This document shows positions 1-39,524 of a stretch of 39,524 nucleotides of DNA, piece after piece. A program made the translations under genes and the position numbers. The DNA comes from a virus: the IMG/VR virus record IMGVR_UViG_3300045988_026467; one strand, given 5' to 3'. The notes under the pieces were generated by a model that worked only from the letters and a program-made list of their open reading frames with translations, had not been told where the DNA came from and did no database searches. Every line of letters begins with the position of its first letter. The first letter of the stretch is position 1.

Positions 1-55
1 CGTCAGTGTATCCTTGCAATCTCCAACACTCTCGCTCTGTCAAATACCGATACCG
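1..55. repeat. Terminal direct repeat, copy 1 (identical to 39470..39524); assembly overlap of a circular contig
   Basis: cgtcagtgtatccttgcaatctccaacactctcgctctgtcaaataccgataccg occurs at both window ends. Confidence 0.95.
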
Positions 56-826
56 CCCATCACCTCGGTCGATAACCTGTGCAGGCGTCCGGTCTTGGCG
101 TGTTGTGATGGTGTATGCATAATCTTGAATGACTGTCGCTCGTCTGATGCCTTTTGCTCCGATGCATTCAAGGACTGACGGCTGTGTCACGTCATAGACA
201 TCCGGAACATCGCTCTCAAGGAAGTCCTGCAAGTTCTGCATCGGTGTCCGAATGAGGTCATCGAATTGGAACGGTTCTCCATCCAGTACCGACACCGTGA
301 ACACTCGTTCCCTTGCCTGTGGCAATCCGAACTCTCTTGCATCCAGTGTCTCGTGATTGTTTGAATATCCCAATCGTTCCATTTCGCTCATATACCTGTC
401 GAAATTCGGTCTCATGTACTTCGATTTCACATTCTTGACGTTTTCCCATATAACATACTTAGGACGCCATTCTCCCATGTTCTCGATGATATGTATTGTT
501 TCCCACATAAGTGAGGAACGTGTTCCGCTGCCCTCGTCTGAACCTTTTCCTCGGTTGATTCTCTCCTCGCCTGTCGCCTTGCCTTGGTGTCCGGCGATGC
601 TCATATCTTGGCAAGGCGAACCATGAATCAGAATGTCCGGCTTGAGATTCCATCCAACGACTGTCTGTGTCTTGTATTCGAGTTCATCTCTGAACATGGA
701 ATTGTAGGAATGGACTGCCTTTTCATTGATTTCCACATAGTCGATTGCTTTGGTTGGTATGTTGAGATTTCTCAATGCACATCTCGGCGAGCCGATTCCT
801 CCAAACAACTCAAGAATCTGAACCAT
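1..826 (-). CDS. DNA (cytosine-5)-methyltransferase, 5' portion; the gene crosses the circular junction and ends at 39321
   Basis: Own translation from ATG 826..824: MVQILELFGGIGSPR (motif I FxGxG), ILIHGSPCQDMSIAG (motif IV PCQ), YVIWENVKN (motif VI ENV), FGLPQARERVF (motif VIII QxRxR). The ORF stays open to position 1. Confidence 0.9.
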   Translation of the reverse strand, partial: MVQILELFGGIGSPRCALRNLNIPTKAIDYVEINEKAVHSYNSMFRDELEYKTQTVVGWNLKPDILIHGSPCQDMSIAGHQGKATGEERINRGKGSDEGSGTRSSLMWETIHIIENMGEWRPKYVIWENVKNVKSKYMRPNFDRYMSEMERLGYSNNHETLDAREFGLPQARERVFTVSVLDGEPFQFDDLIRTPMQNLQDFLESDVPDVYDVTQPSVLECIGAKGIRRATVIQDYAYTITTRQDRTPAQVIDRGDGRYRYLTERECWRLQGYTD

Positions 827-1643
827 TGAGACCGCCTCCTCTCGTCGCATAATAGAACATGTACTGTTGAATGATTCCGGCATATCCGTCATACTTCTCG
901 ACCGGAAACTTACCACCATACTGCTGCTTGATGATTTTATTTATCCATGTATCCACCGGAAAAGCGTCAACCTCGTGCATCCCAAACAGCCGGATGCAGT
1001 TGGCGACCTTTTGTCCTATCCCGTAGATGCTCCGGAGGTTCTTGTCACTATCTCCGGATGATAGTGTTCTGAGGTCAATCTTGCCATCCAGTACGTTCCG
1101 GACGAGACCCTCAAGGTATTTATTACGGTATCCAACGCCACAGGCTCGGAAATCTGCATCTCTTAACTGCTCCGGCGATGGGAATGTATATTGTGGCTGA
1201 TTCTGCCCGTATCCGTCCGGTATCGTGAGCCTGCTGCCATATTTCTCACACAGTGTCTCGATGCTCTGCTTTATCTTCGGGATGTTATTGTTCTGTGAAA
1301 TCATGAACGAGACAATCGTTTCCCACAGAGGTTGATTGAGTATCCGGATGCCTCTGCCGTATTCTGCTGCATCCATAAGAAACCTGTCCTCTTTGTCGAT
1401 GCTGTCAATGATTTTCTTGTATCCGGTCGGTATATCAAAATAATTCGCCCACTTATTTGCAAATGTGTCCTTGTTGCAGGATAGCTCAATCGAGTGACTG
1501 CCTGCTGCCTGTGTTATCTCTATGTAGTCAACCCCGACCACCACTGTGAACGTGTCCTTTTTGGTCGGATGCTCTTTCATCCGGAAACACTGACCGGAAT
1601 CCGCAATCTGCCGGATGTCAAAACAATCAACTTTGATTTCCAT
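810..1643 (-). CDS. ogg: OGG1-family 8-oxoguanine DNA glycosylase/AP lyase (HhH-GPD superfamily)
   Basis: 277 aa. DSGQCFR near the N-terminus. ILNQPLWETIVSFMISQNNNIPKIKQSIETLCEKYG resembles the OGG1 core. HhH-GPD element IYGIGQKVANCIRLFG...AFPVDTW keeps the catalytic Lys and Asp. A Q-x3-F pair (IIQQYMF) matches the OGG1 lesion-pocket pattern. RBS GGAGGGAGG lies upstream. Confidence 0.8.
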   Translation of the reverse strand: MEIKVDCFDIRQIADSGQCFRMKEHPTKKDTFTVVVGVDYIEITQAAGSHSIELSCNKDTFANKWANYFDIPTGYKKIIDSIDKEDRFLMDAAEYGRGIRILNQPLWETIVSFMISQNNNIPKIKQSIETLCEKYGSRLTIPDGYGQNQPQYTFPSPEQLRDADFRACGVGYRNKYLEGLVRNVLDGKIDLRTLSSGDSDKNLRSIYGIGQKVANCIRLFGMHEVDAFPVDTWINKIIKQQYGGKFPVEKYDGYAGIIQQYMFYYATRGGGLNGSDS

Positions 1644-2814: not shown

Positions 2815-3305
2815 TTGACCTCACCGCCTTTCAAGATGCTGTTGTTCGGTATATCCATGACCATCTTTTCGATTGCGTCCTGCTTTCCACTCGCTCGCCC
2901 CATCACAATCATGACATCATTCATCCTCCAACTATTGAGAGATAAATATTTCTCGATGACCTTGATTGCCTCCTCTGCCGAATAACATGTCGCCACGAAA
3001 TGACCTGCCTCTGCCATATCTCTGAGGAACTCTTTCTGTGTTGCCTGCTGCCTGTTGTCACCGTATTTCATCTCGATGAACAATCCGCAATACATCCCTC
3101 TCGGATATGGGAGGCACAAGTCGGACACGCCTGCCTTGACGCCCATCTGTTTGAATTTCACTGCCTCCTGTTTGTTCCTGCTGCCACCATTCGGAACGTG
3201 ATACAACCATCTCAATTCCGGATACCTGTTCATGTTCCAGTTCGCCCATGAGATGACGTTGATTTGCTCCGTGTCCTCACTTCTCAATGCATATTTCATA
3301 TTCAT
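2811..3305 (-). CDS. VRR-NUC domain nuclease (PD-(D/E)xK fold)
   Basis: GVKAGVSDLCLPYPRGMYCGLFIEMKYG contains the D...E-x-K motif. Start moved to MNMKYAL (ATG 3305), which forms an ATGA overlap with the upstream 43-aa ORF. Confidence 0.75.
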   Translation of the reverse strand: MNMKYALRSEDTEQINVISWANWNMNRYPELRWLYHVPNGGSRNKQEAVKFKQMGVKAGVSDLCLPYPRGMYCGLFIEMKYGDNRQQATQKEFLRDMAEAGHFVATCYSAEEAIKVIEKYLSLNSWRMNDVMIVMGRASGKQDAIEKMVMDIPNNSILKGGEVK

Positions 3306-3433
3306 TTTTCTGATTCCTCCTCTATTAGTTCTGCCCTGCATTGCTCATAAAACTCGCAGAACAGGCAAATGCTCCGGCAGTCTTTGACCTTGAGCATCCA
3401 TCTCAGTCTTGCGACTGCCTCTCTGAACCTCAT
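3302..3433 (-). CDS. Small hypothetical protein (43 aa)
   Basis: Own translation: MRFREAVARLRWMLKVKDCRSICLFCEFYEQCRAELIEEESEK. ATGA overlaps at both ends place it in a translationally coupled chain. Confidence 0.4.
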   Translation of the reverse strand: MRFREAVARLRWMLKVKDCRSICLFCEFYEQCRAELIEEESEK

Positions 3434-3738
3434 TTGTCACACTCCTCCATCTCCATCACCATGTATCCGTGAATCAAGATGGTTTTCTCTTTCTTCCCGA
3501 ACTGGTTTCTCGGAGGCTCATTCTCACGCAGGTTCGGCATGTTTCTCTTTGCCTCCCACCACTTTTTCGTGTTGCCTGCCCTGTGAAACGGCGTGAGAAA
3601 TACTTTCATTTTCTGCCCCTGCACTCCGAACGAGGTCTTGTCAATCTTGAGGAAGTCTGTGAATCCTGCTGCCTCAATCTGCTGTTCGGCTTTTATGAAA
3701 TACTTTTCTTTTTCTTCATCCGTCCATCCGAATCTCAC
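3430..3738 (-). CDS. Hypothetical protein (102 aa)
   Basis: ORF track. Sits in an operon with 4-nt overlaps on both sides. No motif recognised. Confidence 0.6.
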   Translation of the reverse strand: MRFGWTDEEKEKYFIKAEQQIEAAGFTDFLKIDKTSFGVQGQKMKVFLTPFHRAGNTKKWWEAKRNMPNLRENEPPRNQFGKKEKTILIHGYMVMEMEECDK

Positions 3739-4520
3739 TGCTCAAGTTCCTCCTCAATCTCTTTCATCCGTTGTATAATGGTCTCATTGTATTCATAGAC
3801 ATATATTCCATTGCTCCACAGATGTGTGTATGCTCCACGCTCGCCGTAATTGTATGCAGCAAGTGCATCTTGAATCGTGCCATATTTCTCAATCAGTCCG
3901 GAAATATAGTCGATGCCGACGTGTATGTTCTGATATGGGTCGAGCAGGTTCGTCGCCCCCAGTTCCTCCATTCGGTCGATATGTGCTGACTGCCATATCT
4001 GCATATATCCCATGGAATGACCATCGTCTCCGATGCGGTCGTACTGGTATCCGGATTCACGCTCAATCATCGCCACCACGAGGCTATATCTCACGCCGTA
4101 CTGTTTGCACAGGCAATATGTGTATATCTGTGCCTCCTCCGGAAAATAGCCTCCGGTCGCTTGATATTCCTCCGGTATCTCGTAGAACACGAAACCATCC
4201 TCCTCGCCACCGTAGTCCATCGACATGGTGTCGAATGCTCCGATGTTCTCAATGTCCGCATCCAGTATCGCCTGCTCTCCGGTCTCAATTCCTGTCATTG
4301 TTCCATTGAGTGCCCTTGCCACTCCTGCGGACAGGTCTGCCAAACTGTCGGCGTTCTCAATTCTTTCTCTGATTTCCTGCTTTCGCTGTTCCTCCTGTCG
4401 CTTTCTCTCGCTTGCTCCTCTGACTGCTGCCACTGCCGTGTGTACCATGAGCACCGCTCCGATTATCAGAACGATTGCGAGGCATATTCTGTCGTGTTTT
4501 CTTGCCTGCTTTCGTGTCAT
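3735..4520 (-). CDS. Membrane-anchored lytic transglycosylase (SLT domain)
   Basis: N-terminal TM helix ICLAIVLIIGAVLMVHTAVAAV. SLT motifs MIERESGY (catalytic Glu), GYMQI and AYNYG. RBS AGAGGAGG 7 nt before ATG 4520. Confidence 0.8.
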   Translation of the reverse strand: MTRKQARKHDRICLAIVLIIGAVLMVHTAVAAVRGASERKRQEEQRKQEIRERIENADSLADLSAGVARALNGTMTGIETGEQAILDADIENIGAFDTMSMDYGGEEDGFVFYEIPEEYQATGGYFPEEAQIYTYCLCKQYGVRYSLVVAMIERESGYQYDRIGDDGHSMGYMQIWQSAHIDRMEELGATNLLDPYQNIHVGIDYISGLIEKYGTIQDALAAYNYGERGAYTHLWSNGIYVYEYNETIIQRMKEIEEELEQ

Positions 4521-5442
4521 GTTCTGACCTCCTCTTTCTCATTCGTGCATGTATGTAGAACATGCAGTTGAAATCGTTGTAATAGACTGCGGAATCCGTG
4601 AACTCATAATCGGGATACCATTTCGCCAACTGCTCCGGAATGCTTTCTCTGTTCTTGACCATCCCGTCGACGAATGAGCCTATCTGTTTATAGTTGCCCC
4701 CTGCTGCCGGACGCTTTGAGTGAACCACTCTGATTCTCGGCTGCGTGAGGTTCTGTGAACTGTTCCATCTCTTTTCTGACTTGACCCTCTCTTTTTCCTT
4801 GACGATATAGTTCGCCATGCCGGACAGACCGAACTTGTCCTTTTCCAGTCTGCGGACTTCGTTCCTGCTGCCACATTTCCATGCCTTTTCAACTGCATCC
4901 ATGTCAAGGTCTCCATCCATCACGAGATGATGATGCCATCTGATTTCCTCGTCCGGATTGTATTCCGTGACGTATATGTATTTGCAATTTCCGAAACCCT
5001 GCTTTTTCCGCTGATAGTTGATTCTGCGGATATAGTTCTGCATGTTCTTGATTGCTGCATCAATATCTCCATCCGGAGGCAGATGCTCGTCATCATAGGT
5101 CAGCGTTATCCAAATGTCTCGGTCTGTGAAATTCTCATTGATAAGACGCTCAACGTATTTCCTCGCATTCTTATCATTCAGATTCTTTTGAGCCTTGGTG
5201 TTGTCCTTTTTCAATCCCTCCGGAGGAACTTCATCCATGCTCCGGAACTGCGGATATATCTCAACCTCGAACTGCTCTCCTGCTGTTATCTCTTTGAGTG
5301 CATACACGACTTTCTTTCTGTGATTGAACATCTGCTCCACAAACCACTCATGCATGTCCTCAAGGCTTTTCGCATACGCTGCCTCATAGTCATACGGGAT
5401 GAAACCCCTCCTCGGTTTCTTCCTTTTCTTGCCCTGCTCCAT
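4357..5442 (-). CDS. HUH-superfamily rolling-circle replication initiator (Rep)
   Basis: 361 aa. Motif 1 IWITLTYDD, motif 2 RWHHHLVMD (HUH), motif 3 GMANYIVKE (catalytic Tyr). The last ~55 codons overlap the SLT gene out of frame and are low-complexity, so the true C-terminus is uncertain. Confidence 0.75.
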   Translation of the reverse strand: MEQGKKRKKPRRGFIPYDYEAAYAKSLEDMHEWFVEQMFNHRKKVVYALKEITAGEQFEVEIYPQFRSMDEVPPEGLKKDNTKAQKNLNDKNARKYVERLINENFTDRDIWITLTYDDEHLPPDGDIDAAIKNMQNYIRRINYQRKKQGFGNCKYIYVTEYNPDEEIRWHHHLVMDGDLDMDAVEKAWKCGSRNEVRRLEKDKFGLSGMANYIVKEKERVKSEKRWNSSQNLTQPRIRVVHSKRPAAGGNYKQIGSFVDGMVKNRESIPEQLAKWYPDYEFTDSAVYYNDFNCMFYIHARMRKRRSEHDTKAGKKTRQNMPRNRSDNRSGAHGTHGSGSSQRSKREKATGGTAKAGNQRKN

Positions 5443-9473: not shown

Positions 9474-10571
9474 ATGAAAATGCCGAATGGATACGGCAGT
9501 GTTGTCAAACTGTCCGGAAAACGTCGCAAGCCTTGGGCGGTTCGCATCTCCTATATGGATGAATCACCCGACGGTGTCATCAAACGCAAACAGAAATACC
9601 TTGCATATTTTGTCAAGCAAGAATCCGCTTTGCAGTATCTTACCGAATACAACAACGGCTCTGTTGTTGCTGAACACATCAAATTCTCTGACGTTCCCAC
9701 GTTCGCCGAACTGTATGGGAAATGGAAGAAATACAAGAAATCACTCAAAGACAAATTATCAGATAGCACATGGAAGAATTATGAGATTGCTTTCAACCAT
9801 CTCGCTCCGCTGCATCCGGTCAAAATAATCAATATACGAGCGAATGACATGCAGGAATGTCTCAACGCCCACAATCATCAAAGCAAGTCCACCATCGGAA
9901 ACATGAGGGCATTGCTCAAGGGTGTGTATGCGTATGCGGTCATGAATGAATATGTCGAGCAGGACTTGACCCAGTTCCTGCAATTTGAATACACTGAGAC
10001 ATCCACATCCATTCACTCCCGTTTTTCCGACGAGGAGATTGAACTCCTGTGGCAGAAATTGTATGTCGTCAACAACGTGGATATTGTTCTCATATACATT
10101 TACACCGGAATGAGACCGACTGAGTTGCTTGAGGTGCTGACCGAGAACGTCCATCTTGATGAAAAATACATGGTCGGCGGTCTCAAGACTGAGAACGGAT
10201 ACGACCGACTGATTCCTCTCTGTGACAAGGTGCTGCCACTTATCCGGAACAGGTACAATCCCGACCGGAAATATTTAATCAATAACAAATACGGCAATCA
10301 TTACACATATGGAACATATCAAAATGGAAATTGGAACACTGTCATGGGAAAACTCGGATTGCAGCACACCCCTCACGATGGTCGATATACATTCGCAGCA
10401 CTCGCAGACAATGCCGGAATGAATATCGTGTGTCAACATGTCATTATGGGTCATGTGATGTCGGACGAGGAAAAGAAGAATTTCAAATCACGCACCGGAC
10501 AGGACATCACAAAAGGCGTATACACTCAGAAAACCATGAATGAACTGCTCAAAGAGGTCAATAAATTATGA
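9474..10571 (+). CDS. int: Tyrosine site-specific recombinase (phage integrase)
   Basis: 365 aa. GMRPTELLEV (Arg I), HTPHDGRYTFA (His-x-x-Arg), VIMGH, GVYTQKT (catalytic Tyr). Confidence 0.9.
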   Translation: MKMPNGYGSVVKLSGKRRKPWAVRISYMDESPDGVIKRKQKYLAYFVKQESALQYLTEYNNGSVVAEHIKFSDVPTFAELYGKWKKYKKSLKDKLSDSTWKNYEIAFNHLAPLHPVKIINIRANDMQECLNAHNHQSKSTIGNMRALLKGVYAYAVMNEYVEQDLTQFLQFEYTETSTSIHSRFSDEEIELLWQKLYVVNNVDIVLIYIYTGMRPTELLEVLTENVHLDEKYMVGGLKTENGYDRLIPLCDKVLPLIRNRYNPDRKYLINNKYGNHYTYGTYQNGNWNTVMGKLGLQHTPHDGRYTFAALADNAGMNIVCQHVIMGHVMSDEEKKNFKSRTGQDITKGVYTQKTMNELLKEVNKL

Positions 10572-14915: not shown

Positions 14916-15055
14916 GATTCCGTTCTTTCCTCTCCGGTGATGTAGGTGTATTCTGCATCGGTAATCTTGCCGGATGCAGCACGTTCCGCAATCTGTTCTT
15001 TCGTGAGTTTTCCTGCCTCATACAGTCTCTTGAAACTTTCTACGACGATTCGCAT
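14912..15055 (-). CDS. XkdX-family small phage protein (47 aa)
   Basis: Own translation: MRIVVESFKRLYEAGKLTKEQIAERAASGKITDAEYTYITGEERTES. Fits the XkdX pattern (...G.iT.eeY..ITGe). Confidence 0.65.
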   Translation of the reverse strand: MRIVVESFKRLYEAGKLTKEQIAERAASGKITDAEYTYITGEERTES

Positions 15056-15408
15056 TATAACAATCCCTCCTCTACCAGTTGCAAGGTGTACTCGTCAATC
15101 ACTGCGGATTTCTGAAAATCTGTCACACTGCTGACGATTTCGCTCTTGTTGGTGTTGACAACCTCCTGCACAAGTTTCATCTGCTGATACTCGTCCAGTG
15201 TCAACTCACGCTCCTCACGTTCCCATCCGACGACCTTTGTTCCATCCTCCTCAACCTTGGTCTTTTCCACGACATTGCGTCTCTGATAGACCGTTGTTGG
15301 AGAGAGTGTCTCGTCGAACTCCTGCGGTTTCTCCGGTTCTGTTCCGAATACTGTTCTCCACTCTTTCACGCTTTTCTTTCTCCTTTCGCCTTGAATGCTT
15401 GCTGACAA
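15055..15408 (-). CDS. Acidic hypothetical protein (104-117 aa)
   Basis: The track ORF starts at TTG 15408. A GTG at 15369 with AAGGAGAAAG upstream is a better start. Overlaps the RT 3' end out of frame. Confidence 0.5.
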   Translation of the reverse strand: MSASIQGERRKKSVKEWRTVFGTEPEKPQEFDETLSPTTVYQRRNVVEKTKVEEDGTKVVGWEREERELTLDEYQQMKLVQEVVNTNKSEIVSSVTDFQKSAVIDEYTLQLVEEGLL

Positions 15409-16504
15409 TCCGTTTCAGTTTCTTGACATTCACATACGGCTTGACCCTGTCTTGATACATGCCATAAGTGTCCGTGTGGGTGAGGTATCCCATGTATGAC
15501 AGGATTGCCGTTGCGTCATACCATGTGATTTTGTCTTTCTTCGCCACCCTGTTGACTTTTCTTGTGCAACTGAGCATGATTGATTCTCTCAGAATCGTCC
15601 GGTCTTGGTGGAACTCAAAACCCATAAAGTCGAGCGGTCTGCCCTTGACCTTTCCGGTCTTTCTTTCCACATACTCAAACCGGAATACCTGCCAGTTGTC
15701 TTTCATTTTTAAGTTGAGACGTTCTCTCAAAAAATCATCAATCGCAATCCGCATCCGGTGCAATTCTTTTTTATTCCTGCCGAACACGACCATGTCATCC
15801 ATGTATCTGATATAGTGTGCAGCATGTAACTGTTCTTTGATGTAGTGGTCGAGTGGCTGCAACATGAAATTCGATAGCCACTGCGATGTGTAGAAACCGA
15901 GTGGCAATCCCTGCTCGCTGCCGTCGATAATCAAGAACAGGATGTTGAGCATCCTTTTGTCTCTGATTTTCTTCTCAAGCCACGCCTTGAGGGCGTCATG
16001 GTCGACACTCTCGAAAAAGTGCCGTATATCCATCTTGAGGATATATTTGCAATTCTTGAGGTCAGTATGTATCCATCTTTCGATGTACTTCTTTCCGTAG
16101 TGAGCACCCCTGTTCGGAACGCTCCCACATGAGAACTCATACATGCCTTGCATAAATATGTCATAGCAAGCCGACACCACTATATGATGAACCACTTGCT
16201 CATAATTGTATCGAGGTTTCTCAATGAGCCTCTGTTTCTTGCTCGTTCCCTCGTTGATTCTCACCTTGCCATGTTTGGCAGGTCTCCACGCCTTTTCCGG
16301 ATTCGGTACGTCATACCCCTCCGGTGCTGTGTTGGATAGTTGCTCGATGACCGTTTCAACGTGTCTCTGAATGTTTTCCGGTTTCAGTATCACGGCAACG
16401 TCAGACCGCTCGGTCTTTCCCTTTGCTGCAATGTGAAACTTTTTCTCTACGTTGCTATGCTCAAGCATAGGTTCAAACAGGTTGTTGACGGATTTCTTTC
16501 CCAT
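15251..16504 (-). CDS. DGR-type reverse transcriptase
   Basis: 417 aa. YIRYMDDMVVFG (YxDD catalytic motif). GLPLGFYTSQWLSNF carries the DGR signature [LIV]GxxxSQ. Starts 141 nt downstream of the template repeat. Confidence 0.9.
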   Translation of the reverse strand: MGKKSVNNLFEPMLEHSNVEKKFHIAAKGKTERSDVAVILKPENIQRHVETVIEQLSNTAPEGYDVPNPEKAWRPAKHGKVRINEGTSKKQRLIEKPRYNYEQVVHHIVVSACYDIFMQGMYEFSCGSVPNRGAHYGKKYIERWIHTDLKNCKYILKMDIRHFFESVDHDALKAWLEKKIRDKRMLNILFLIIDGSEQGLPLGFYTSQWLSNFMLQPLDHYIKEQLHAAHYIRYMDDMVVFGRNKKELHRMRIAIDDFLRERLNLKMKDNWQVFRFEYVERKTGKVKGRPLDFMGFEFHQDRTILRESIMLSCTRKVNRVAKKDKITWYDATAILSYMGYLTHTDTYGMYQDRVKPYVNVKKLKRIVSKHSRRKEKEKRERVENSIRNRTGETAGVRRDTLSNNGLSETQCRGKDQG

Positions 16505-16645
16505 TTCTTTCTTATCACCTCAAGGTCTTTCTTTTCCAATACTCGACCCTGCCTGCATCGGTATCATTTTCACTGGTTAGCAGTGTCTCAACTGCCTGCG
16601 GTGTAGGAATGCGGTGTGCTTTTGGTTATACGCTCCGTCATTTGA

Positions 16646-16757
16646 TAAGATTGGCTCGCCCCGATGTTCGTGTTCACGTTCGTCGCAAGGTTGTTCAAAT
16701 TCCAGTACGAGAGACCGCACTTCGACCCGTTGCCACGGTTGCCACCGAACAGGGCAA
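16646..16757 (-). repeat. DGR template repeat (TR), 112 bp
   Basis: Aligns without gaps to 16987..17098 (offset 341). Holds 26 adenines on the coding (minus) strand. In the target frame it encodes 7 AAC and 1 AAT codons. Confidence 0.9.
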
Positions 16758-16814
16758 GGACGCACACCGAATCCCCTCATGTATAGGGTCATCATTTTTA
16801 TAATCACGTCGGAG

Positions 16815-16823
16815 ATTCTACCA
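16815..16823 (-). promoter_or_regulatory. Candidate extended -10 promoter for the TR-RT transcript
   Basis: The minus strand reads TGGTAGAAT, about 58 nt upstream of the TR. No good -35 element. Confidence 0.35.
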
Positions 16824-16857
16824 CGAAAAAGTCGCTTTGTGTCGTCTCCTCGTCCTG

Positions 16858-16876
16858 TTTCCAACATCGTGGAAAT
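16858..16876. promoter_or_regulatory. Third copy of the TTTCCA-N6-TGGAAA palindrome
   Basis: The minus strand reads ATTTCCA-cgatgt-TGGAAA. The arms match those of the tandem sites at 8417..8469. Confidence 0.6.
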
Positions 16877-16896
16877 TCTACTCAGTGGCGAGACAC

Positions 16897-16974
16897 TCGG
16901 AGGGTAAACCCTCCGAACCTCCCTTTGCGGATGGGGAAACCCCCTCCGTTCCTCCCCCTGCTGCTTACGCAGCA
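16897..16974 (-). promoter_or_regulatory. Three consecutive GC-rich hairpins between the target-gene stop and the TR
   Basis: 16959..16974: TGCTGC/GCAGCA with a 4-nt loop that overlaps the TAA stop (loop 16965..16968, stop 16965..16967). 16928..16948: CGGAtGGGG/CCCCcTCCG. 16897..16916: TCGGAGGGT/ACCCTCCGA. None has a U-run. Confidence 0.6.
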
Positions 16975-18197
16975 ACAGGCGGTTTGCAAGAAAGGCTCGC
17001 CCCGATGATCGTGTCCACGACCGTCGCAAGGTGGTGCAAAAGCCAGCACGAGAGACCGCACCACGACCCGTCGCCACGGTCGCCACCGAACAGGGCAACA
17101 TCCAACTGAGCGTTGTTGAACCAAAAACCATCACACTCGTATGTGGTCTCGCTTCCGGATGCTTTCACCGGAACTCTGCCTCCGTCCGTCATACGCATCT
17201 CAGACAGGTATCCTCCGGATGTTCCGGCAGGCACAAGACCCGTGCTGATGTATCCTGCTCCGGTGCTGTCGTATGGTGGAACGAATTTCACTTTGATGTT
17301 TCCGTTGTCGTTGATAAGTCCACGGATTCGTTTCCAGTAGTTGCCATAGAAATTCTCACAATAGAACATCTTGACACCTGCTGCCGTTCCGCTTGTTCCA
17401 TAGAACTGACCCTTGCCGTTGAGTGTTCCGGTTGCAAGGAAATTGTCTGATGTGCTGCATCCCATGCCGAACTTTGTCTGCGAGTTCGTGTTCTTTGAAA
17501 TCAGAGTACACATCTCATACATGAGGTTGCATTCTGAAAATGAGAGTTTATCCCATCTGTCGCCGTTCTGCTGTGCTGCTGTGGTTTCCTGTGCATCTGT
17601 AAGCGATGCCGATACCGTCTGACCGGACAGCGAACGCATACGGTTGTTGATAACTGAACCCTCATACATAGGGAAATATGTCACAGGCAGGACATTTCCG
17701 TCTGCATCTGTGTGAGCGTATGCGTGATAGGTGTCATCATACTGAGTTTCGCAGAATACAACGAAATCATAATTGTTCTGAGACCATCTCTTGACCCAAA
17801 TCAGTGGAATCTCAGACATTGCATTCCCACCGTAGGCAGTGGATGCGACTGCGGATGGAGTGCCATCCAGTTTCAAGGCGTGATTCTCATGATTCAATTC
17901 ATAGTCCACTGTTCCGTCGGTTCTCAGCATGACCGGACGGTTATTCTTTACAAACCACAAGTCTCCCCAGTCGCCGTAATCAAACGCCCCTGCACTGTAA
18001 TTCATTCCGGCAGGTGTCATCCCGACGGCATCAAAAAGATATGTGACACGGGTTGCCGGATTGCTGTCGAGCCTGTTGATTCTCATGCCGTATCTTTTAG
18101 GTTTCTCTGCTGCTCCACTGATGATTTTTTCTGTATTTGCGAGAATCTTCTGCGAGGTCGATTCTTTCGCCATGAATATTCTGTCTCCTGCTGCCAT
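16965..18197 (-). CDS. DGR target: receptor-binding tail-fibre protein with a C-terminal variable region (C-type-lectin-like fold inferred)
   Basis: 410 aa. The last 44 codons include the VR (ALFGGDRGDGSWCGLSCWLLHHLATVVDTIIGASLSC). Positioned after the BppU-like and Mtd_N-like tail genes. Confidence 0.85.
   Translation of the reverse strand: MAAGDRIFMAKESTSQKILANTEKIISGAAEKPKRYGMRINRLDSNPATRVTYLFDAVGMTPAGMNYSAGAFDYGDWGDLWFVKNNRPVMLRTDGTVDYELNHENHALKLDGTPSAVASTAYGGNAMSEIPLIWVKRWSQNNYDFVVFCETQYDDTYHAYAHTDADGNVLPVTYFPMYEGSVINNRMRSLSGQTVSASLTDAQETTAAQQNGDRWDKLSFSECNLMYEMCTLISKNTNSQTKFGMGCSTSDNFLATGTLNGKGQFYGTSGTAAGVKMFYCENFYGNYWKRIRGLINDNGNIKVKFVPPYDSTGAGYISTGLVPAGTSGGYLSEMRMTDGGRVPVKASGSETTYECDGFWFNNAQLDVALFGGDRGDGSWCGLSCWLLHHLATVVDTIIGASLSCKPPVAA
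16987..17098 (-). repeat. DGR variable repeat (VR), 112 bp
   Basis: 96 of 112 positions match the TR. All 16 differences correspond to TR coding-strand adenines. Confidence 0.9.
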
Positions 18198-18583
18198 TAT
18201 TCTGTTACCTCCTCTGTAATTTCCTCAAAGTACAACGTGCCGTTCGAGATACCCATTCGGTACTTGATAGCCGTTACATCGTCCTCAAGTTCGACCGTGG
18301 TCGCCAGTGCTTTCATTTCTGCCAGTAGCTCCGTGCCTTTAGCGACAAGATTGTTGTAATAGGTCTGAGAATCCACATCCATTCCGGTCTTGATTTCTCT
18401 GACCTCCTCGATGTCGAATGTGACAGGCAAGTCCATGAACTCACTTGCTCCATTTCCCACTCTGATGATTCGGTGACCGTCCGCTGTGGTTTCAAGTCCG
18501 AGTTCTCCGTCGTCAAGAACTCGCTTGCTCTCCGTCCATTCGGCGGTCGTTCCTTTTTTTAACGTGATTGTTGCTGTTGCCAT
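18197..18583 (-). CDS. Tail fibre / baseplate protein with an Mtd_N-like (hyaluronidase-type) N-terminal motif (128 aa)
   Basis: ITLKKGTTAEWTESKRVLDDGELGLETTADGHRIIRVGNGASEFMDLP fits the l.lRRGt.aeW...NpvL..GE.g.EtDt...KiGDG...w..Lp pattern. Confidence 0.65.
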   Translation of the reverse strand: MATATITLKKGTTAEWTESKRVLDDGELGLETTADGHRIIRVGNGASEFMDLPVTFDIEEVREIKTGMDVDSQTYYNNLVAKGTELLAEMKALATTVELEDDVTAIKYRMGISNGTLYFEEITEEVTE

Positions 18584-19458: not shown

Positions 19459-20451
19459 TCACGAGAGTTCCTGCTCGGTCTTTTGAACCTCCTCGAATGA
19501 CAATCTCGTATTTGCCAGTTCAACCTTGTTTCGTTCCTTGGTTAGCGGATATTCATAGAATTTCACGACCCTGTGTTTCTCTCTGAGGTTTGTTGATTTT
19601 GAAATCAGCAGCACCGTGTCTCCCAGTCCGACCGAGAACACCTCTTTGTATTCCTCAGATACCTCGGCGAGATTGATGACGTCTGCGGTGTAGGACTTGT
19701 ATGGTTTTGAGAGTTCATCCAGTTTCGCCTCGCCGTCCTCCTGCAATGATTCTCGAACGGTGTATCGTTCATCTTTCCATGTGCAGGTCTTGACTTTCTT
19801 TGAATACTGATAGTTTTCGACGTAGTTCTTGCCATCTATATCAAGCATCAAGCCATCTTTCCCGATGCATATTAGTCTCGTGCAGAAATCGTATGAGTTC
19901 GACTGAATCTGCAATCGTTTGAGATTCAATCTCTCCATGAAATACGCTCCTTTGTCCTCGCCTATCTTTTCATAGATTGCGATTGTTTTAGCAATCGAAT
20001 CGAATTTGATTTCGCATCTGTATGTAGTGATGACCGATTGAATGATGCTCCATGCGGAACAGTTGGAATCCGATGACACCGTCCTTTTTTTGGTTGGCTC
20101 GCAAAGAATCACTTTCCACTCCGTTCCATCAATCGCCGTTTCGACACATTCCTCTGCCGTGACCTCTGTTGTCTTGAATCCTGTCGGGAACTGTTTCCCC
20201 TCAAGGCTCTCCACATTCATCGCTGCGGTGCATTTATACCATGAATCTGACGGCTCAATCTGTTTGATGACAAACTCGTCGCTCTGTGTCCGGATATACC
20301 CCTCCTCTTTGATTGAGGACGCATACGGGTTTTCTTTCCGGAACATGAATGTCAATTCCTTGTCTCCGGTTTTCAGTGTACTTGTGATGCATATTTCTTT
20401 CACTCCGAACAGATTGCACACTTTTATGTGCATATCATTGAATAGTTCCAT
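19459..20451 (-). CDS. Tail-associated (Tal-like) baseplate hub protein, short form (330 aa)
   Basis: Lies directly after Dit. RBS AGGAGGTG. The call rests on position and size. Confidence 0.6.
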   Translation of the reverse strand: MELFNDMHIKVCNLFGVKEICITSTLKTGDKELTFMFRKENPYASSIKEEGYIRTQSDEFVIKQIEPSDSWYKCTAAMNVESLEGKQFPTGFKTTEVTAEECVETAIDGTEWKVILCEPTKKRTVSSDSNCSAWSIIQSVITTYRCEIKFDSIAKTIAIYEKIGEDKGAYFMERLNLKRLQIQSNSYDFCTRLICIGKDGLMLDIDGKNYVENYQYSKKVKTCTWKDERYTVRESLQEDGEAKLDELSKPYKSYTADVINLAEVSEEYKEVFSVGLGDTVLLISKSTNLREKHRVVKFYEYPLTKERNKVELANTRLSFEEVQKTEQELS

Positions 20452-20461
20452 CCTGCACCTC

Positions 20462-21169
20462 CTAGAGCCACATTGGATTGTATTCCAGTGTCACAATGAT
20501 GTTCTTGTCTGAAAATATGAGATGATGTTCTCTGTCCTCTCCGGTTTTCAAGAATGGAAACTCCATCATGCCGTCGACATCCCCGAACTTGTTTGCTCCG
20601 TCCATCGTGATGAATCCTTTGGTCGAATCAATCACGACTGTCGCTCCTCTCGGAATAACATTGATTGTCAACTCGTCGGAGAAACCGTTGATTTTCAACA
20701 CCTCGATGTATTCCAGTGCCGTGATGCTCAGTTTGCACGGTGACCACCTGTTCCCTGCTGCCTCGAATTTTGCCTCATGTACTTCCTGCCATGTGAGTGT
20801 CACTGTATCGCTGAACCAGTATCCGTTGAATGTGAACTCTGCTTTGTACCTCGTTCCGGTGATGGTCTTGTTGAGTGTGTTGCCCGTCATGTATGCCTTG
20901 AATTTTCTCTCGTATCCATCCAGTGTCAAAATGACACCTTTTTGCAACATGGCATTGAAATCACTGACATATCTCTGTATTTCATTTCTTGTCTGCCCTC
21001 TGAAATAAATCTCAACCGTGAGTTCTGACAGTGGTGTGTATGTCTCAGATTCCGACGGGGTCAATGCCCCGTCGAATAGTTCCACGTTCACGGCTGTGGA
21101 TGGAGGTGTGTATGAGACTTTTAACTGCTTGGCACTGAATGTCCGAATGTCCGTGTTGTTAATCTGCAT
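20462..21169 (-). CDS. Distal tail protein (Dit, siphovirus tail component)
   Basis: 235 aa, immediately downstream of the tape measure gene. RBS GAGGAGGT. Confidence 0.65.
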   Translation of the reverse strand: MQINNTDIRTFSAKQLKVSYTPPSTAVNVELFDGALTPSESETYTPLSELTVEIYFRGQTRNEIQRYVSDFNAMLQKGVILTLDGYERKFKAYMTGNTLNKTITGTRYKAEFTFNGYWFSDTVTLTWQEVHEAKFEAAGNRWSPCKLSITALEYIEVLKINGFSDELTINVIPRGATVVIDSTKGFITMDGANKFGDVDGMMEFPFLKTGEDREHHLIFSDKNIIVTLEYNPMWL

Positions 21170-21172
21170 TTT

Positions 21173-24100
21173 TTACCTCCTCTTTTTTGTTTCAATGGCA
21201 AGTTTGTCGCTGACCTTTTCGGTCGTCCTGCTTGCGACTTCGTCGCCGTCAATATAGTTGTGTGTTTCCACATATACATTTGTTGTTGCTTTTAATGCCT
21301 GCAACTTGTTATCAAGCATCATATTCAATCTCGTGTAGAATGGTTCGAGAGGGAGAACTGCCTCTGCACCTGCCTCACCGCCTATCATGAAATTGTTTCC
21401 ATTCGCTCCGAATATCGTCGGTTGTAACATGATACCGCCTGTTTTGTACCACTCCACTCCGAACGACGGAACTGACGGAGGGTTCAAACTGAATGAGCCG
21501 GAGATACTGAAATGTGGCAGTTTCAAACTCGGCAGTGACCACTCGAAATTGAATTTTTCTTTTATAGCATCAATCGCATTCGATACGGCTGTCTTTGCAG
21601 CATTTATCGGTGTCTCGATGGCTGATTTGATGCCGTTCCATACTGTTGTGACTGTTGATTTCAGTGCATTGAATACAGTGGTCACAGTGGTTTTCACTGC
21701 ATTGACTGCGGTCGATACCGTGTTCTTTGCCGTGTCGATTGCTGTCTCAATGGCTGACTTGATGCCGTTCCATATAGATGACGCTGTCATTTTCACAGTT
21801 GTGAACACTGTTGTCACCACTGTCTTGATGGCATTGACCACAGTTGTGATTTTGGTCTGAATCGCCGTCCATACTGTATCAATTACCGTCTTGATGGCAT
21901 TGACCGCAGTTGTCACGGCTGTCTGAATCGCCGTCCACACTGTCGTGATGACCGTCCGGATTGCCTCAAGAATCGTCTGCACATTTGTTTTGATGTTCGT
22001 CCATACCGTCGTGATAACTGACAGGATTCCGGTCAATATGAACTGAATCCTTGCAAGGAAAAAGTCGAACACCGTCATGATGATGGTCTTGAGGTTTTCA
22101 AGCACTGTCTGAATCTTTGTCTTAATGGCATCCCATATCGTCGTGACTATGGTCTTGATGGCGGTCAGTACCGTACTGATGACCGTTTTCACGGTATTGA
22201 TTGCGGTCTGTACCTTTGAGGTGATAGCATTCCACACCTCGATGATGATGTCTTTGCAGTTTTCCCAAATGAACCGGAATGGCAACGTGATGATTGTCAC
22301 CGCTGCATTGATGATTTCTTTTATTGCCATGAACGCCACCGTGATGACGTTCTTGATTGTCTCGAACACCGTCGTGACAATCTCTTTGCATTTCCCGAAC
22401 GCATTGGAAAAAGCCTCTTTTATCGGTGCGAGTTTCTCGCTGACCGCTGCTTTCATCTCTCCCAGTTTGTCCGAGAATGCTTTTTTGATTTCGGTGAGTT
22501 TGCCTCCGGTTAGTTTATCCACAAAAGAGAGACCTGCGGTGTAATATCCTTTGATTCCCTCCCATGCTCCGGCGACAACGCCCTTGATTCCTCCACCGTT
22601 CTCCTCGTAGGCTGATTTGATATTGTTTAATTTCTCGGATACTGTTTCTTTTGCAGCACCGAGAACAGTTCCCATTGTTTCCTTGACCTTATTGAATGCA
22701 CCGGATACCGTCTCTTTGAGGCTTGAGAGTTTCTCGCTCGTCGCCGTCTTGACTTTATCCCATGCACCGGATACCGTCTCTTTGACTTTTCCGAATACAT
22801 TCGAGACGACCTCGGCAATCTTGCCGAATGCCTCTTTGACCGCCGTCCATAATTTATTGACGGCATTTCGGAACGTCTCTGAGTTTTTATATAAAGCGAT
22901 GAACCCTGCGACAAGTCCTGCGATTGCAAGGACAACAATGCCGATAGGATTCGCCGACATCGCTGCATTCAACAACCACTGTCCGGCTGCTGCTGCCTTG
23001 GTTGCGACCGTGTGTGCGAGTGTTGCTGCCGTTCCTGCTGACGTTGCTGTCGTGTTGGCTGCTGATGCCACCGTGGAGGCGGTTTCTGCTGCTGCATCCG
23101 CTGTCGTCGCTGCTGTCTTGGCTGCTACCTTTGCAATCACTTTCGTGACCACATCTCGCATCGCCTTGAACCCGTTGACTGCTCCTTTGACGCCCTGCCC
23201 CACTTTACCGAGGGCAATGGATAGCGGTGCAATCGCTGCCACGAATAACCCGACTTTGATGATTGTCTGCTGTTGCCCCTCGTCCAGTGAGCCGAACCAT
23301 TCACACAACGCTTTGACTTTATCTGAAAACTGGTCAATGATTGGTGCTGCCGATGTGAGAATCGTCTGACCAAACTGCATCACGGTGTTTTTCAACTCAT
23401 TGAGTGTCACCTTGGTGTCGTATGAGGTTGTTTTCATTTTGCCGAACGCCGTATCTGTCGCACCCGTGGAGTTCCGCATCTGTCCGAGGGTGGTGTTGAA
23501 CGTGTCCGCACTATCACCCAGTAGAATGAGACCTGCTTTTGCTGCCTCTGATGACGAGAACATATCGCTCATTGAGAGGTTCTGTTCCTTTGCTGCTCCG
23601 TCTACGATGGCAAGAACATCCGAGAGACTTGCTCCATCTGCCATCAATTCCTTGAATGACTTTCCGGTCTTTTCTCTCAGAATCACGTCGGTCGTGCTGC
23701 CAGTCTTTCCCAACTCGTTGAGCATCGAGTTCATGTATGTCGTCGATTCTGCTGTCGCAACACCGTTCGCTGTCATGATTGCATATCCTGCACATAACTG
23801 GTCGAGTGCTACGCTGTTAGCATTCGCCGTCGGGATGACTTTACCCATTGCAGACGATAACTCTCCAACGGTCGTTTTGCCGAGATTCTGTGTCTGAATC
23901 AACATGTCCGACACGTTTGTGACCTGCTCTGCCGATAGACCGTAGGCATTCATGATTGTGGTCAGCACATCGAGGGTGTCTCCGGATTCCGCAAAACCTG
24001 CCGTCGCCAGTTTTGTGGACTGACGAACGAAATTGACAGCATCTCCCGTTTTCTGACCTGCACTGATGGCGTTGTATACGTTGTCAGCAATGTCTCCTGC

Positions 24101-36497: not shown

Positions 36498-37097
36498 CTA
36501 TGATGCCATCACTTTGGCGAGCAGGCTCTCGTATAACTGTTTGAATGTGTCTCGTTCGGTCTCAAGTCGAATCATGCTCTCCTGTGATGCACTTTGTTCC
36601 ACTTTCTTATTTTCCTCGACATGCACTGCTGCTTCCTGTTCAATCTCTGCGATTGCATCCTCATACTCCTGCTGCAAATCAGCAATCTCTGCCTTGAGAC
36701 GTTCAATCTCGTCATTCTGCTGTTTTATGGTCTCGTTGTACTGCTTTGAGGTCTTGGTGTCTCCGTCCAGTGCAAGGGAAATCATGAGAGCGATGTCAAT
36801 GTTCTTTTGCTCCTGCTCTGATACCTGTCCGATATATCCTGCGATTCTATCCACGGATACAGAAACAATCTGCTCGCATAATACAGTTGAGACTCTGCCC
36901 GTGCTCCGGATGACCGTATGTGTCGGCAGGTCTGTCTTTGGCTGAGTGGTCAAATATACCACCTCGACCACTCCACTGTTTTCATTGTTCTTTTCATTGC
37001 TGACGATGACCGCCGGACGGTCTGCCTGCTGCTCATGACCGTATGACACCCCCCCTCTGCTGATATAATAGATTTCACCTCTATGCAAATCATTCAT
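36498..37097 (-). CDS. MazF/PemK-like domain fused to a ~90-aa C-terminal coiled coil
   Basis: Start moved to MNDLHRGEIYYI (ATG 37097). RGEIYYISRGG...ADRPAVIVSNEKNN...VVEVVYLTTQPK...STVLCEQIVSVSVDRI fits the PemK pattern (GdIy..d....G.E....RPvvVvS.d..N.....v.v.plTs......s.v...Qi.tvdk.Rl). Confidence 0.65.
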   Translation of the reverse strand: MNDLHRGEIYYISRGGVSYGHEQQADRPAVIVSNEKNNENSGVVEVVYLTTQPKTDLPTHTVIRSTGRVSTVLCEQIVSVSVDRIAGYIGQVSEQEQKNIDIALMISLALDGDTKTSKQYNETIKQQNDEIERLKAEIADLQQEYEDAIAEIEQEAAVHVEENKKVEQSASQESMIRLETERDTFKQLYESLLAKVMAS

Positions 37098-38496
37098 TGT
37101 CCTTTTCCTCCTGTTCTGCCACTTCGATTCCTGCCACGGATACGAGTTTCGTTCCCATGATGCAATATCCATCCTCAAGTCCGGTATAATTCTCAAGCAG
37201 GTATGTTACAAGCACTCTCACGGAGCGTCCTGTGTTCTTTCCGTCCTTGAACTCCATCATCTCAAGGATGTCGCCTTTTTTATAGCCTCTATCATTCTTC
37301 CGGAGTTCAAATGTCTTTTCTCCGGATGCAACCTCCTCAAAAGATGTCGCTCCCAGTTTAATGTGATGCACTTTCTGACCGTTCTCCTGTGTGTCTGACG
37401 GGAGGTTGTTCATCTTCTCCTCCTCTGCCTGTTCACGGAGTTTCTTTTTTGTCTCACGGTCGATTGCATCCTGCTCCTCGTTATATCTCTGCTCCTCGGT
37501 CTTGTAAGCCTCTGCACGGTTCTTGTACTGGTCGCATGAGGTACATGTTCCGGTCTTTACGTTGCAAGTCTCGTATTCGGTGCAGGAATAACACAGAGAG
37601 GTGATTCCCTCCGGATGCGGTGTCTGATAGTCGTCGCCTGCTGCCGTCTCGGTCTTTTCTCCGGAGGTGTCTGAATCTGACACCTGTTCCTCTGCCTCTC
37701 CGATAACCTCGCCGTGATATGAGAGCGGTGTTTCCTGCTCTGCTGTGGTCTCGCCTGCTGCCTTTGCCTCTTTCATGCCCTTGACCTCTTTGTATGAGAG
37801 TTCTCCGGTCTCCATGTATTTTCCCAGTGCCTCACGCTGTTCCTCTGCCGACATCCCACTGAGTTCGTATGCAGCGGAAAACGTGAGACGTTCCTTTGTG
37901 AGTTCCTCTCTGAACTCCGGAATCAGATTGTTGCTGACGCTCTCCATCTGTGCAATCTTGGTCTTTGATGTCTTGAGCATCGTGGCGATGACATCTCTCA
38001 GTCTGCCGGATTGCAGGTCATATCCCTTGATTGTGCCTCCTGCTGCCTTTATACGCTCAAGGGATGCCTTGAGACGCTGTTCCTCCTCGATTAAGTCCTT
38101 GACGCTCTTGATTCGGTATGCGTTGGCGATGATGATTTCCACCTGCTCCTCGTCCGAATCCTGTGGCGTTGTCAGTTTGCAGGTCGCCATCTCAAACTCT
38201 TTGTATCCCTTTTCGACGAGCATCTTGAGAGCGAGCCATCTGCGTTCTCCTGCGATGATTCTATATTCGCCCTGCTCATTCGGCTCATAGACGAGTTCGA
38301 GGTTCTGTTTCAATCCGTACATGAGGATTTCTCCTGCCAGTTCCTCGATGCCACTGAGGTCATAGAAATTCATTGTATTCCGGTACATCTTGAAAATTGA
38401 AATGTCTCTCGTTCTGAATCTCGCTCTCGGTGTCTCGTCAATGCCTGCTTTTGTATTCTTATTCAGTGCATCCATCACACTATATCCTGTTGCCAT
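37090..38496 (-). CDS. ParB N-terminal-domain protein fused to a Cys-rich linker and a C-terminal DUF3850/ASCH-like domain
   Basis: 468 aa. YRIIAGERRWLALKML (ParB GERR box). CYSCTEYETCNVKTGTCTSC. HHIKLGATSFEEVASGEKTFELRKNDRGYKKGDILEMMEF fits the DUF3850 pattern. Confidence 0.7.
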   Translation of the reverse strand: MATGYSVMDALNKNTKAGIDETPRARFRTRDISIFKMYRNTMNFYDLSGIEELAGEILMYGLKQNLELVYEPNEQGEYRIIAGERRWLALKMLVEKGYKEFEMATCKLTTPQDSDEEQVEIIIANAYRIKSVKDLIEEEQRLKASLERIKAAGGTIKGYDLQSGRLRDVIATMLKTSKTKIAQMESVSNNLIPEFREELTKERLTFSAAYELSGMSAEEQREALGKYMETGELSYKEVKGMKEAKAAGETTAEQETPLSYHGEVIGEAEEQVSDSDTSGEKTETAAGDDYQTPHPEGITSLCYSCTEYETCNVKTGTCTSCDQYKNRAEAYKTEEQRYNEEQDAIDRETKKKLREQAEEEKMNNLPSDTQENGQKVHHIKLGATSFEEVASGEKTFELRKNDRGYKKGDILEMMEFKDGKNTGRSVRVLVTYLLENYTGLEDGYCIMGTKLVSVAGIEVAEQEEKDNE

Positions 38497-39320: not shown

Positions 39321-39524
39321 TCAAACCGCCTCCCTTGTTTCTCCGAGAATGATTTTTCGGAACATGCTTTCAAATATCGGAACGGCGATGCTGTTCCCTG
39401 CTTGGTCATATAATGCCTTGTAATATTTCCCGATTCTTTGCTGTGCCTCTCTCGCCCTCTCAAAGTCCTCGTCAGTGTATCCTTGCAATCTCCAACACTC
39501 TCGCTCTGTCAAATACCGATACCG
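39321..39524 (-). CDS. DNA (cytosine-5)-methyltransferase, 3' portion (continuation of 1..826 across the circular junction)
   Basis: TERECWRLQGYTDEDF and AGNSIAVPI correspond to C5-MTase motifs IX and X. Codon phase is continuous with 1..826 through the 55-bp overlap. Confidence 0.9.
   Translation of the reverse strand, partial: RYRYLTERECWRLQGYTDEDFERAREAQQRIGKYYKALYDQAGNSIAVPIFESMFRKIILGETREAV
39470..39524. repeat. Terminal direct repeat, copy 2 (identical to 1..55)
   Basis: Exact 55-nt identity with the window start. Confidence 0.95.

Follow-up and report, generated by a model that had tools for sequence, protein, structure and literature searches.

An accessory-gene-less diversity-generating retroelement with a tail-tip protein target in a temperate human-gut siphovirus

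The DNA considered here is IMG/VR virus record IMGVR_UViG_3300045988_026467, a stretch of 39,524 nucleotides (nt) that we refer to as the window, and our subject is a diversity-generating retroelement (DGR) encoded on its minus strand. The locus comprises a target gene (16965..18197) for a 410-amino acid (aa) tail-tip variable protein of the Mtd/TaqVP type, a variable repeat (VR, 16987..17098) near the end of that gene, a template repeat (TR, 16646..16757) and the gene for a 417-aa DGR reverse transcriptase (RT, 15251..16504). Taken as a whole, this is almost certainly a complete and currently active DGR, free of accessory genes, in a temperate siphovirus of human-gut Lachnospiraceae. A first-pass annotation, made from the sequence alone, had already interpreted the locus as a DGR, and that interpretation is borne out by repeat mismatches confined to adenines, an RT resembling that of a Bordetella phage, the fold of the target protein and the heterogeneity of the VR among natural copies.

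Repeats, reverse transcriptase and target protein

A base-by-base recount of the two repeats gave an ungapped alignment of 112 nt at an offset of 341, with 16 mismatches. In each of them, the copy nearer the RT has a T on the plus strand (T>C 7, T>A 6, T>G 3). Read on the coding strand, 16 of the 26 TR adenines are altered, as against none of the 86 other positions, and the probability of all 16 mismatches hitting the 26 adenine positions by chance is 5.6e-13 (hypergeometric). The recount thereby reproduces the coordinates, the offset, the lack of insertions or deletions and the mismatch count of the first-pass annotation, and mismatches at non-adenine template positions, which would have counted against it, numbered zero. 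The TR/VR pair also ranks as the top direct-repeat family in a repeat search, and neither strand of the window holds a third copy or a remote target, even with any base allowed at the TR adenines.

The VR covers codons 367-404 of the 410-aa open reading frame (ORF), within its last 44 codons, and ends 19 nt from the target stop codon; the end of the TR lies 141 nt from the start of the RT gene. Seven AAC codons and one AAT codon are found in the TR, and the peptides encoded by TR and VR differ at 12 residues. The first-pass annotation had already given the 44 codons, the 141-nt distance, the codon counts, the 12 residue changes and the translations correctly. Upstream of IMH*, the TR counterpart of the initiation of mutagenic homing (IMH) site, the TR contains 22 of its 26 adenines. 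They are spread over 13 codons, eight of them AAY, and specify a repertoire of approximately 8.5e12 possible proteins.

The RT matches RVT_1 (3.7e-16) and, over residues 3-387, phrog_1423 (3e-98), and it carries the YMDD and LGFYTSQ motifs (the latter of the [LIV]GxxxSQ type) that had previously been noted for it. Its best match in the PDB is 8ub7_A (E 5e-25, 91 bits), which is the Bordetella phage enzyme bRT, as identified by residue numbering that matches the bRT cryo-electron microscopy paper. Matches to GsI-IIC, an RT from a group II intron (1e-13, 54 bits), and to a chain named as a retron-type RT (1e-9, 41 bits) score lower. In the alignment, the catalytic D138, D215 and D216 of bRT correspond to D159, D236 and D237 of the window RT, and its fidelity residues R74, I181, G182 and Q187 correspond to R92, L202, G203 and Q208. 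A grouping with group II intron or retron RTs, or a loss of catalytic residues, would have spoken against a DGR; bRT is the closest match and the catalytic aspartates are kept. The protein ends in a basic C-terminal tail of 67 aa (isoelectric point, pI, 10.7), which is kept in relatives.

The target protein belongs to phrog_5302, annotated as 'tail protein' (1e-112), and has no Pfam match. Using an alignment of 38 sequences, AlphaFold (AF2) produced a model with a predicted local distance difference test score (pLDDT) of 91.5 and a predicted template modelling score (pTM) of 0.89. When this model was compared with the PDB using Foldseek, the only significant matches were TaqVP (5vf4, E 4e-11) and Mtd (1yu0, E 4e-4), both of them DGR variable proteins, which answers the earlier suggestion to look for a C-type-lectin (CLec) fold. 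Whole-chain TM-scores were modest (0.45 for TaqVP and 0.31 for Mtd). TaqVP, a DGR variable protein of Thermus aquaticus with a CLec fold, is the best structural match (probability 1.0); it shares 12% sequence identity with the target and is a cellular protein, whereas the target is a phage tail protein.

Gene position and the modelled fold together suggest that the target is a receptor-binding protein whose diversification would act on host range. It is the last structural gene of a tail-tip module that runs from Dit (20462..21169) through a Tal-like gene (19459..20451), a BppU_N-like ORF and a 128-aa ORF to the target, and it is similar to Mtd, in which residues of the VR touch the receptor on the bacterium (PMC5758913). 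VR diversification most likely changes receptor specificity. An alternative, which we consider improbable though far from negligible, accepts that the DGR is real but holds that tail diversification tunes binding to some other ligand, such as capsule variants, mucus or glycans, or helps the host of the prophage. In its favour, the role given to the target leans on its place after the Dit, Tal-like and BppU_N-like genes, on the PHROG label and on the fold. On the other side stand the tail-tip position and the likeness to Mtd, and the distinct, full-length and stop-free VR found in each natural copy (see below) suggests selection for function.

The 128-aa ORF just upstream (18197..18583, minus strand) has the tail-module context described above and a weak Mtd_N-like N-terminus (PF18454, 24.5 bits against a cut-off of 26.3), and its stop codon overlaps the target start (TAATG). 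We considered whether it might be a detached N-terminus of the target. This idea was rejected, as the ORF has no similarity to the N-terminal extension of 528-aa homologues of the target and no relatives in the PDB.

Natural variation and the 3' boundary of the variable repeat

At 90% identity, the target protein clusters into a group of 415 distinct sequences, from which 13 full-length members were read. Outside the VR, eight of the 13 match the window protein exactly, yet they differ from it at 8-12 residues, all of them within residues 373-398. The naturally varying part of the VR is accordingly 17006..17081, and every natural copy has its own full-length VR without stop codons. At the DNA level, we compared a 2947-nt cassette with four independent metagenome contigs of the same phage. 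Each differs from the window by 3-4 single-nucleotide polymorphisms (SNPs) outside the VR, by none in the TR and by 10-14 in the 112-nt VR, and the polymorphic VR positions across the contigs fall at TR adenines without exception (17/17). The TR is identical in every copy of the phage examined. An invariant TR beside a hypervariable VR is the population signature of ongoing mutagenic homing. Polymorphism confined to the adenine-templated positions, which the first-pass annotation had proposed to look for in reads, is thus seen between samples, a weaker form of the observation than one at read level.

These data bear directly on whether the repeats merely record past activity of an element that is now inert, which we regard as very improbable. 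Relics do exist in the family, in the form of loci (L049/L050) that keep a VR and a TR with no RT gene. The RT ORF of the window, however, is intact and has all its catalytic residues, and between near-identical genomes, with 3-4 SNPs over 2.9 kb, the VRs show 10-14 differences at sites templated by adenine, so that homing has been more recent than almost any point mutation.

One protein stands apart from the remainder. In P0132 (422 aa, from a 2214-nt contig) the target ORF runs into the sequence downstream of the TR (..GASQSYQMTERITKSTPHSYTAGS). This represents a collapse of VR and TR, which may have arisen during assembly or through genuine recombination or deletion between the two repeats.

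The natural variants also divide the 16 mismatches into two kinds. The three 3'-most (16646, 16651 and 16652; TR ..SQSY, VR ..SLSC) are the same in all 13 natural VR variants, and are therefore fixed differences between IMH and IMH* rather than products of mutagenesis. The attribution of all 16 mismatches to mutagenic homing consequently stands for 13 of them and falls for these three. The IMH-like 3' end of the VR (16987..17004, minus strand) consists of the GC-rich CGGGGCGAGCC (16994..17004) followed by TTTCTTG, and its counterpart IMH* (16646..16663, minus strand) ends in ...AATCTTA. Within CGGGGCGAGCC, the A of an AGC codon is constant in all variants, and relatives, too, have non-adenine differences between TR and VR at the IMH site. 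As in BPP-1 (PMC5758913), the differences between IMH and IMH* mark the 3' bound of information transfer.

A 9-bp hairpin, CCTGTTGCT-GCGTA-AGCAGCAGG, lies 8 nt downstream of the VR (16957..16979, minus strand), and its loop contains the TAA stop codon of the target gene. It has no counterpart after the TR. GC-rich hairpins with a GTA or GTAA loop, whose stems differ in sequence yet stay complementary, are present in approximately 16 of the 21 relatives checked. The parallel with BPP-1 makes this a candidate target-recognition hairpin or cruciform.

Immediately beyond it is a second, G-rich stem-loop, CGGAGGGGG-TTT-CCCCATCCG (16928-16948, minus strand), and most relatives have G-rich/C-rich hairpins at this site. 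It could be a terminator for the target gene or part of the 5' region of the DGR RNA. A promoter and terminator scan gave nothing beyond shuffle expectation. The hairpin region accounts for the only megablast match of the window among GenBank phages, where no near-identical phage was found. Positions 16940-16984, spanning the IMH-proximal hairpin region, match 21779-21823 of MT835666 over 45 nt at 93% identity. MT835666 is a human-faecal phage whose RT is just 40% identical to that of the window, so the IMH-proximal non-coding element is unusually conserved.

RNA structure around the template repeat and the absence of Avd

The spacer RNA between TR and RT (16508..16605, minus strand) matches two Rfam motifs, RT-18 at 44.0 bits, above its gathering score of 41.3, and RT-4 at 69.8 bits, below its gathering score of 73.5. 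Around the TR, a 5' arm at 16762..16774 pairs with a 3' arm at 16607..16619, 26 nt downstream of the TR (both on the minus strand), to form a helix, H1, which encloses the entire TR as a loop and was also picked up by an inverted-repeat search. To assess the structure across the family, 29 non-identical relatives were aligned from TR-50 to TR+175. RNAalifold placed four helices outside the TR in this alignment, recovering H1 independently of the repeat search, with compensatory changes in 9 of its 10 pairs and covariation in the spacer helices H2-H4. Over the 23 RNA pairs counted, 95% of cells are paired, compared with approximately 40% when the partners are slid; 21 of the pairs show compensatory changes, and none of 500 shuffles matched the observed value. 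The whole RNA, folded as a single sequence, does no better than its shuffles (z = -0.47), and it is covariation alone that backs the RNA structure.

In position, H1 matches the avd:Sp 'cPRT Stop' duplex of BPP-1, which terminates complementary DNA (cDNA) synthesis and is needed for it, as reported in a study that covered Avd-containing DGRs only (bioRxiv 10.1101/2023.10.23.563531). H1 may likewise be where cDNA synthesis ends. Conservation is also seen at the adenosines just 5' of the 3' arm of H1, as it is at the priming A56 of BPP-1, although this is no more than an analogy.

The likeness to BPP-1 (mtd-avd-TR-brt) extends across the element. In both systems, adenine-specific transfer from TR to VR alters a CLec-type domain at the C-terminus of a tail protein, and both have a GC-rich IMH followed by a hairpin, a structured RNA in the TR-RT spacer and a duplex flanking the TR. 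Their RTs share YMDD, an IGxxxSQ-type motif, the catalytic aspartates and the residues corresponding to R74, G182 and Q187, the change from I181 to L202 being conservative. In contrast to BPP-1, the window has no avd, an RT that is 89 aa longer with the basic 67-aa C-tail and of low identity to bRT (E 5e-25), a spacer RNA of the Rfam RT-18/RT-4 kind rather than RT-10, an Mtd_N-like segment in a separate upstream ORF, and a Gram-positive host.

Reasoning from BPP-1, the element would operate as follows. An RNA spanning approximately 16505..16780 (minus strand) would be made and would fold such that the 13-bp duplex closes the TR into a loop, with the RT-4/RT-18-type structure downstream binding the RT. 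The enzyme would then copy the TR into cDNA, primed in cis and with misincorporation opposite adenines, and this cDNA would replace the VR, with the GC-rich IMH and the adjacent hairpin setting the 3' limit. The predicted outcome is the recoding of 13 codons for residues on the face with which a C-type-lectin-like protein of the tail tip binds its ligand.

Several points weigh against reading the locus as a complete, active DGR that works in this way. Avd is essential in the BPP-1 model system, and avd is typical of DGRs (74%), although not universal. Pfam searches of the neighbouring ORFs and of approximately 40 single ORFs brought up neither Avd nor HRDC nor any other known accessory gene, and none of 83 ORFs of 60-200 aa matched an Avd-type Pfam family at E <= 1. 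The 229-nt gap between VR and TR contains no ORF; in relatives the gap is 68-243 nt, except for 590 nt in one locus (L051). Within the spacer no convincing template:primer duplex was found, and constrained folding of the 26-nt segment between TR and H1 was inconsistent across relatives. The VR diversity was seen between samples and not within one read set, and so gives neither the rate nor the timing of homing.

The lack of Avd has precedent. Wu et al. (2018) found 29% of DGRs to be without accessory genes, suggested an Avd-independent mechanism and noted an avd-less 'Lineage 3'; 75 of their 372 DGRs have Architecture A, a TR-RT core with no accessory gene (PMC5758913). Given this, the absence of an Avd gene makes the element an Architecture A DGR, and a DGR nonetheless. 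Like other members of that class, it has the target with its VR, the TR and the RT on one strand and no Avd, HRDC, MSL or CH1 gene. It differs from the survey's examples in that the Avd-less state is paired here with population evidence of activity and with an RNA scaffold supported by covariation.

A small acidic ORF next to the RT was examined as a possible substitute. It encodes 104 aa from a GTG start (15055..15369, minus strand; phrog_20201), or 117 aa in the longest reading, which extends to 15408, and has a pI of 4.5. It overlaps the 3' end of the RT gene in another frame by 119 nt from the GTG start or by 158 nt in the longest reading, and similar overlaps occur in most related loci, but not in Arawn, a cultured phage described below. 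In most of the related loci a homologue lies beside the RT, even where RT identity has dropped to 37%. Its AF2 model (pLDDT 73) consists of a beta domain and a long helix, with no fold match in the PDB, and the protein has no PADLOC, Pfam or NCBIfam match. The model is not a helical bundle of the Avd kind. Its linkage to the RT may be plain synteny, the ORF simply being a syntenic phage gene.

In BPP-1, Avd braces the N-terminus of the RT and holds the spacer RNA. It is a speculative thought that the basic C-tail of the RT and the small acidic ORF might compensate for its loss. A broader proposal, that this lineage retrohomes without any Avd-like protein and that the tasks of Avd fall to the RT-4/RT-18 RNA scaffold together with the basic C-tail, or else to the small acidic ORF, we put forward tentatively, judging it rather doubtful.

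Scarcely credible is a further alternative to an active DGR, in which the RT serves defence or abortive infection, or belongs to a retron or group II intron, and the repeat is coincidental: a prophage-immunity role has been proposed for the homologous RT of phage Arawn (PMC7372960), and NCBIfam and PADLOC return generic RT-domain matches to Drt3a, UG families, retron and group II models, but these are partial and far below the family cut-offs (87.9 bits against 300 for group_II_RT_mat, TIGR04416; 77.6 against 200 for Drt3a), Rfam finds no group II intron or retron RNA but only RT-18 and RT-4, and such a role leaves both the adenine-specific TR/VR signature and the population behaviour unexplained.

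The phage, its relatives and the significance of the element

The phage is a circular 39.5-kb temperate siphovirus of the human gut with Lachnospiraceae as hosts. An exact 55-nt direct repeat at the two ends of the window (1-55 and 39470-39524) indicates that the window is a circularly closed assembly and the genome complete at approximately 39,469 bp. The first-pass annotation called the phage temperate; this is backed by a tyrosine integrase gene (9474..10571, plus strand) and by a 166-kb contig in which the same phage is integrated beside an ABC transporter gene, and the window also has an HTH_3 repressor-like ORF. A human-gut metagenome holds the target protein of the window verbatim, and RT relatives of 77-80% identity come from a Roseburia metagenome-assembled genome (MAG), Lachnospiraceae MAGs, Clostridia assemblies and one unclassified isolate. 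Beyond the DGR lie an XkdX-like gene, holin-like ORFs and a CHAP/SH3 endolysin.

Elsewhere in the window there are some less expected genes. An 8-oxoguanine DNA glycosylase (OGG_N and HhH-GPD domains; 810-1643, minus strand) is an unusual repair gene for a siphovirus, and has ParA-like, VRR-NUC, SLT and Rep (ORF2/G2P) genes as neighbours. Two ORFs overlap at 36498-37196 and 37090-38496 (both minus strand); one contains a PemK/MazF-like toxin domain (7.5e-22), and the other, upstream, has ParB_N and DUF3850/ASCH domains. A C-5 cytosine methylase fragment at the end of the window probably runs on across the circular junction.

The element adds a member to an established group, the accessory-less DGRs found in phages of gut Firmicutes. 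We scanned 53 loci, mostly fetched via the RT and some duplicating one another, and 40 of them have the same VR-TR-RT layout, with repeats of 98-125 nt and 7-21 mismatches. In these 40, all of the mismatches, or all but one or two, are at TR adenines.

A few of the related loci are unusual in their own right. L049/L050 (3993-4501) has a VR at 3993-4105 and a TR at 4242-4354 with 18 mismatches, 17 of them at A; it has no RT gene, only 147 nt lie between the TR and an ORF homologous to the small acidic one, and its spacer motif is degraded. Either the locus is a relic without an RT, or its DGR is served in trans. L039 (CAZEAT010000001.1) comes from a MAG labelled 'uncultured Holosporaceae' (Alphaproteobacteria), and its DGR layout is nearly that of the Lachnospiraceae MAGs at 43% RT identity; the label probably stems from a mistake in binning or labelling and not from a cross-phylum host. 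In L008 (8037-8329, equivalent to 6263-6555 of L009), a related phage has two 131-nt direct repeats downstream of its lysis region, with 162 nt between them, and their 5 mismatches are not adenine-specific.

The closest cultured relatives are the Butyrivibrio phages Arawn (NC_048848) and Idris (MN882554) of the genus Arawnvirus, with 49% RT identity. Arawn has an unannotated DGR of the same Avd-less type at 2989-4643, and Idris has one at the same coordinates. The Arawn VR lies in tail protein gp17, and all nine of its TR/VR mismatches are at adenines. Across 5 kb, Arawn and Idris differ at 15 positions, 13 of which are in the VR, all at TR adenines, and their TRs are identical. The two phages carry the same active cassette. 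They share with the window the order of tail protein with VR, TR, spacer and RT, a TR-bracketing duplex, an RT-4-like spacer, XkdX-like and lysis genes downstream and a Lachnospiraceae host. Unlike the window, they are rumen phages of 31 kb, their target protein (523 aa) is a different one, and the small ORF after the RT does not overlap it. The paper describing them reads the RT as possible prophage immunity and mentions no DGR (PMC7372960).

DGRs in gut phages are well documented, and specialists will find little unexpected in the element as such. It is of value as a clean and demonstrably active example of the poorly understood Avd-less class, in which natural variants fix the rewritten positions and the IMH boundary exactly. 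What it adds is proof of activity at population level, a sharper IMH boundary, the covarying RNA scaffold, a functional context for RT-18/RT-4 and a cultured model system. Weinberg et al. described motifs RT-1 to RT-19 near RT genes, tied only RT-10 to a DGR (that of BPP-1) and speculated that further RT motifs might belong to DGRs (PMC5737381); the orphan motifs RT-18 and RT-4 can now be assigned to the TR-RT spacer of a working DGR. The TR-bracketing duplex, found here in an Avd-less lineage, extends structural conclusions that had been drawn from Avd-containing DGRs alone. Arawn and Idris are cultured relatives in which Avd-independent homing could be tested directly. If the lineage does retrohome without any Avd-like protein, it would represent a minimal two-component DGR of RT and RNA, attractive for engineering as a simpler chassis for targeted mutagenesis in vivo.

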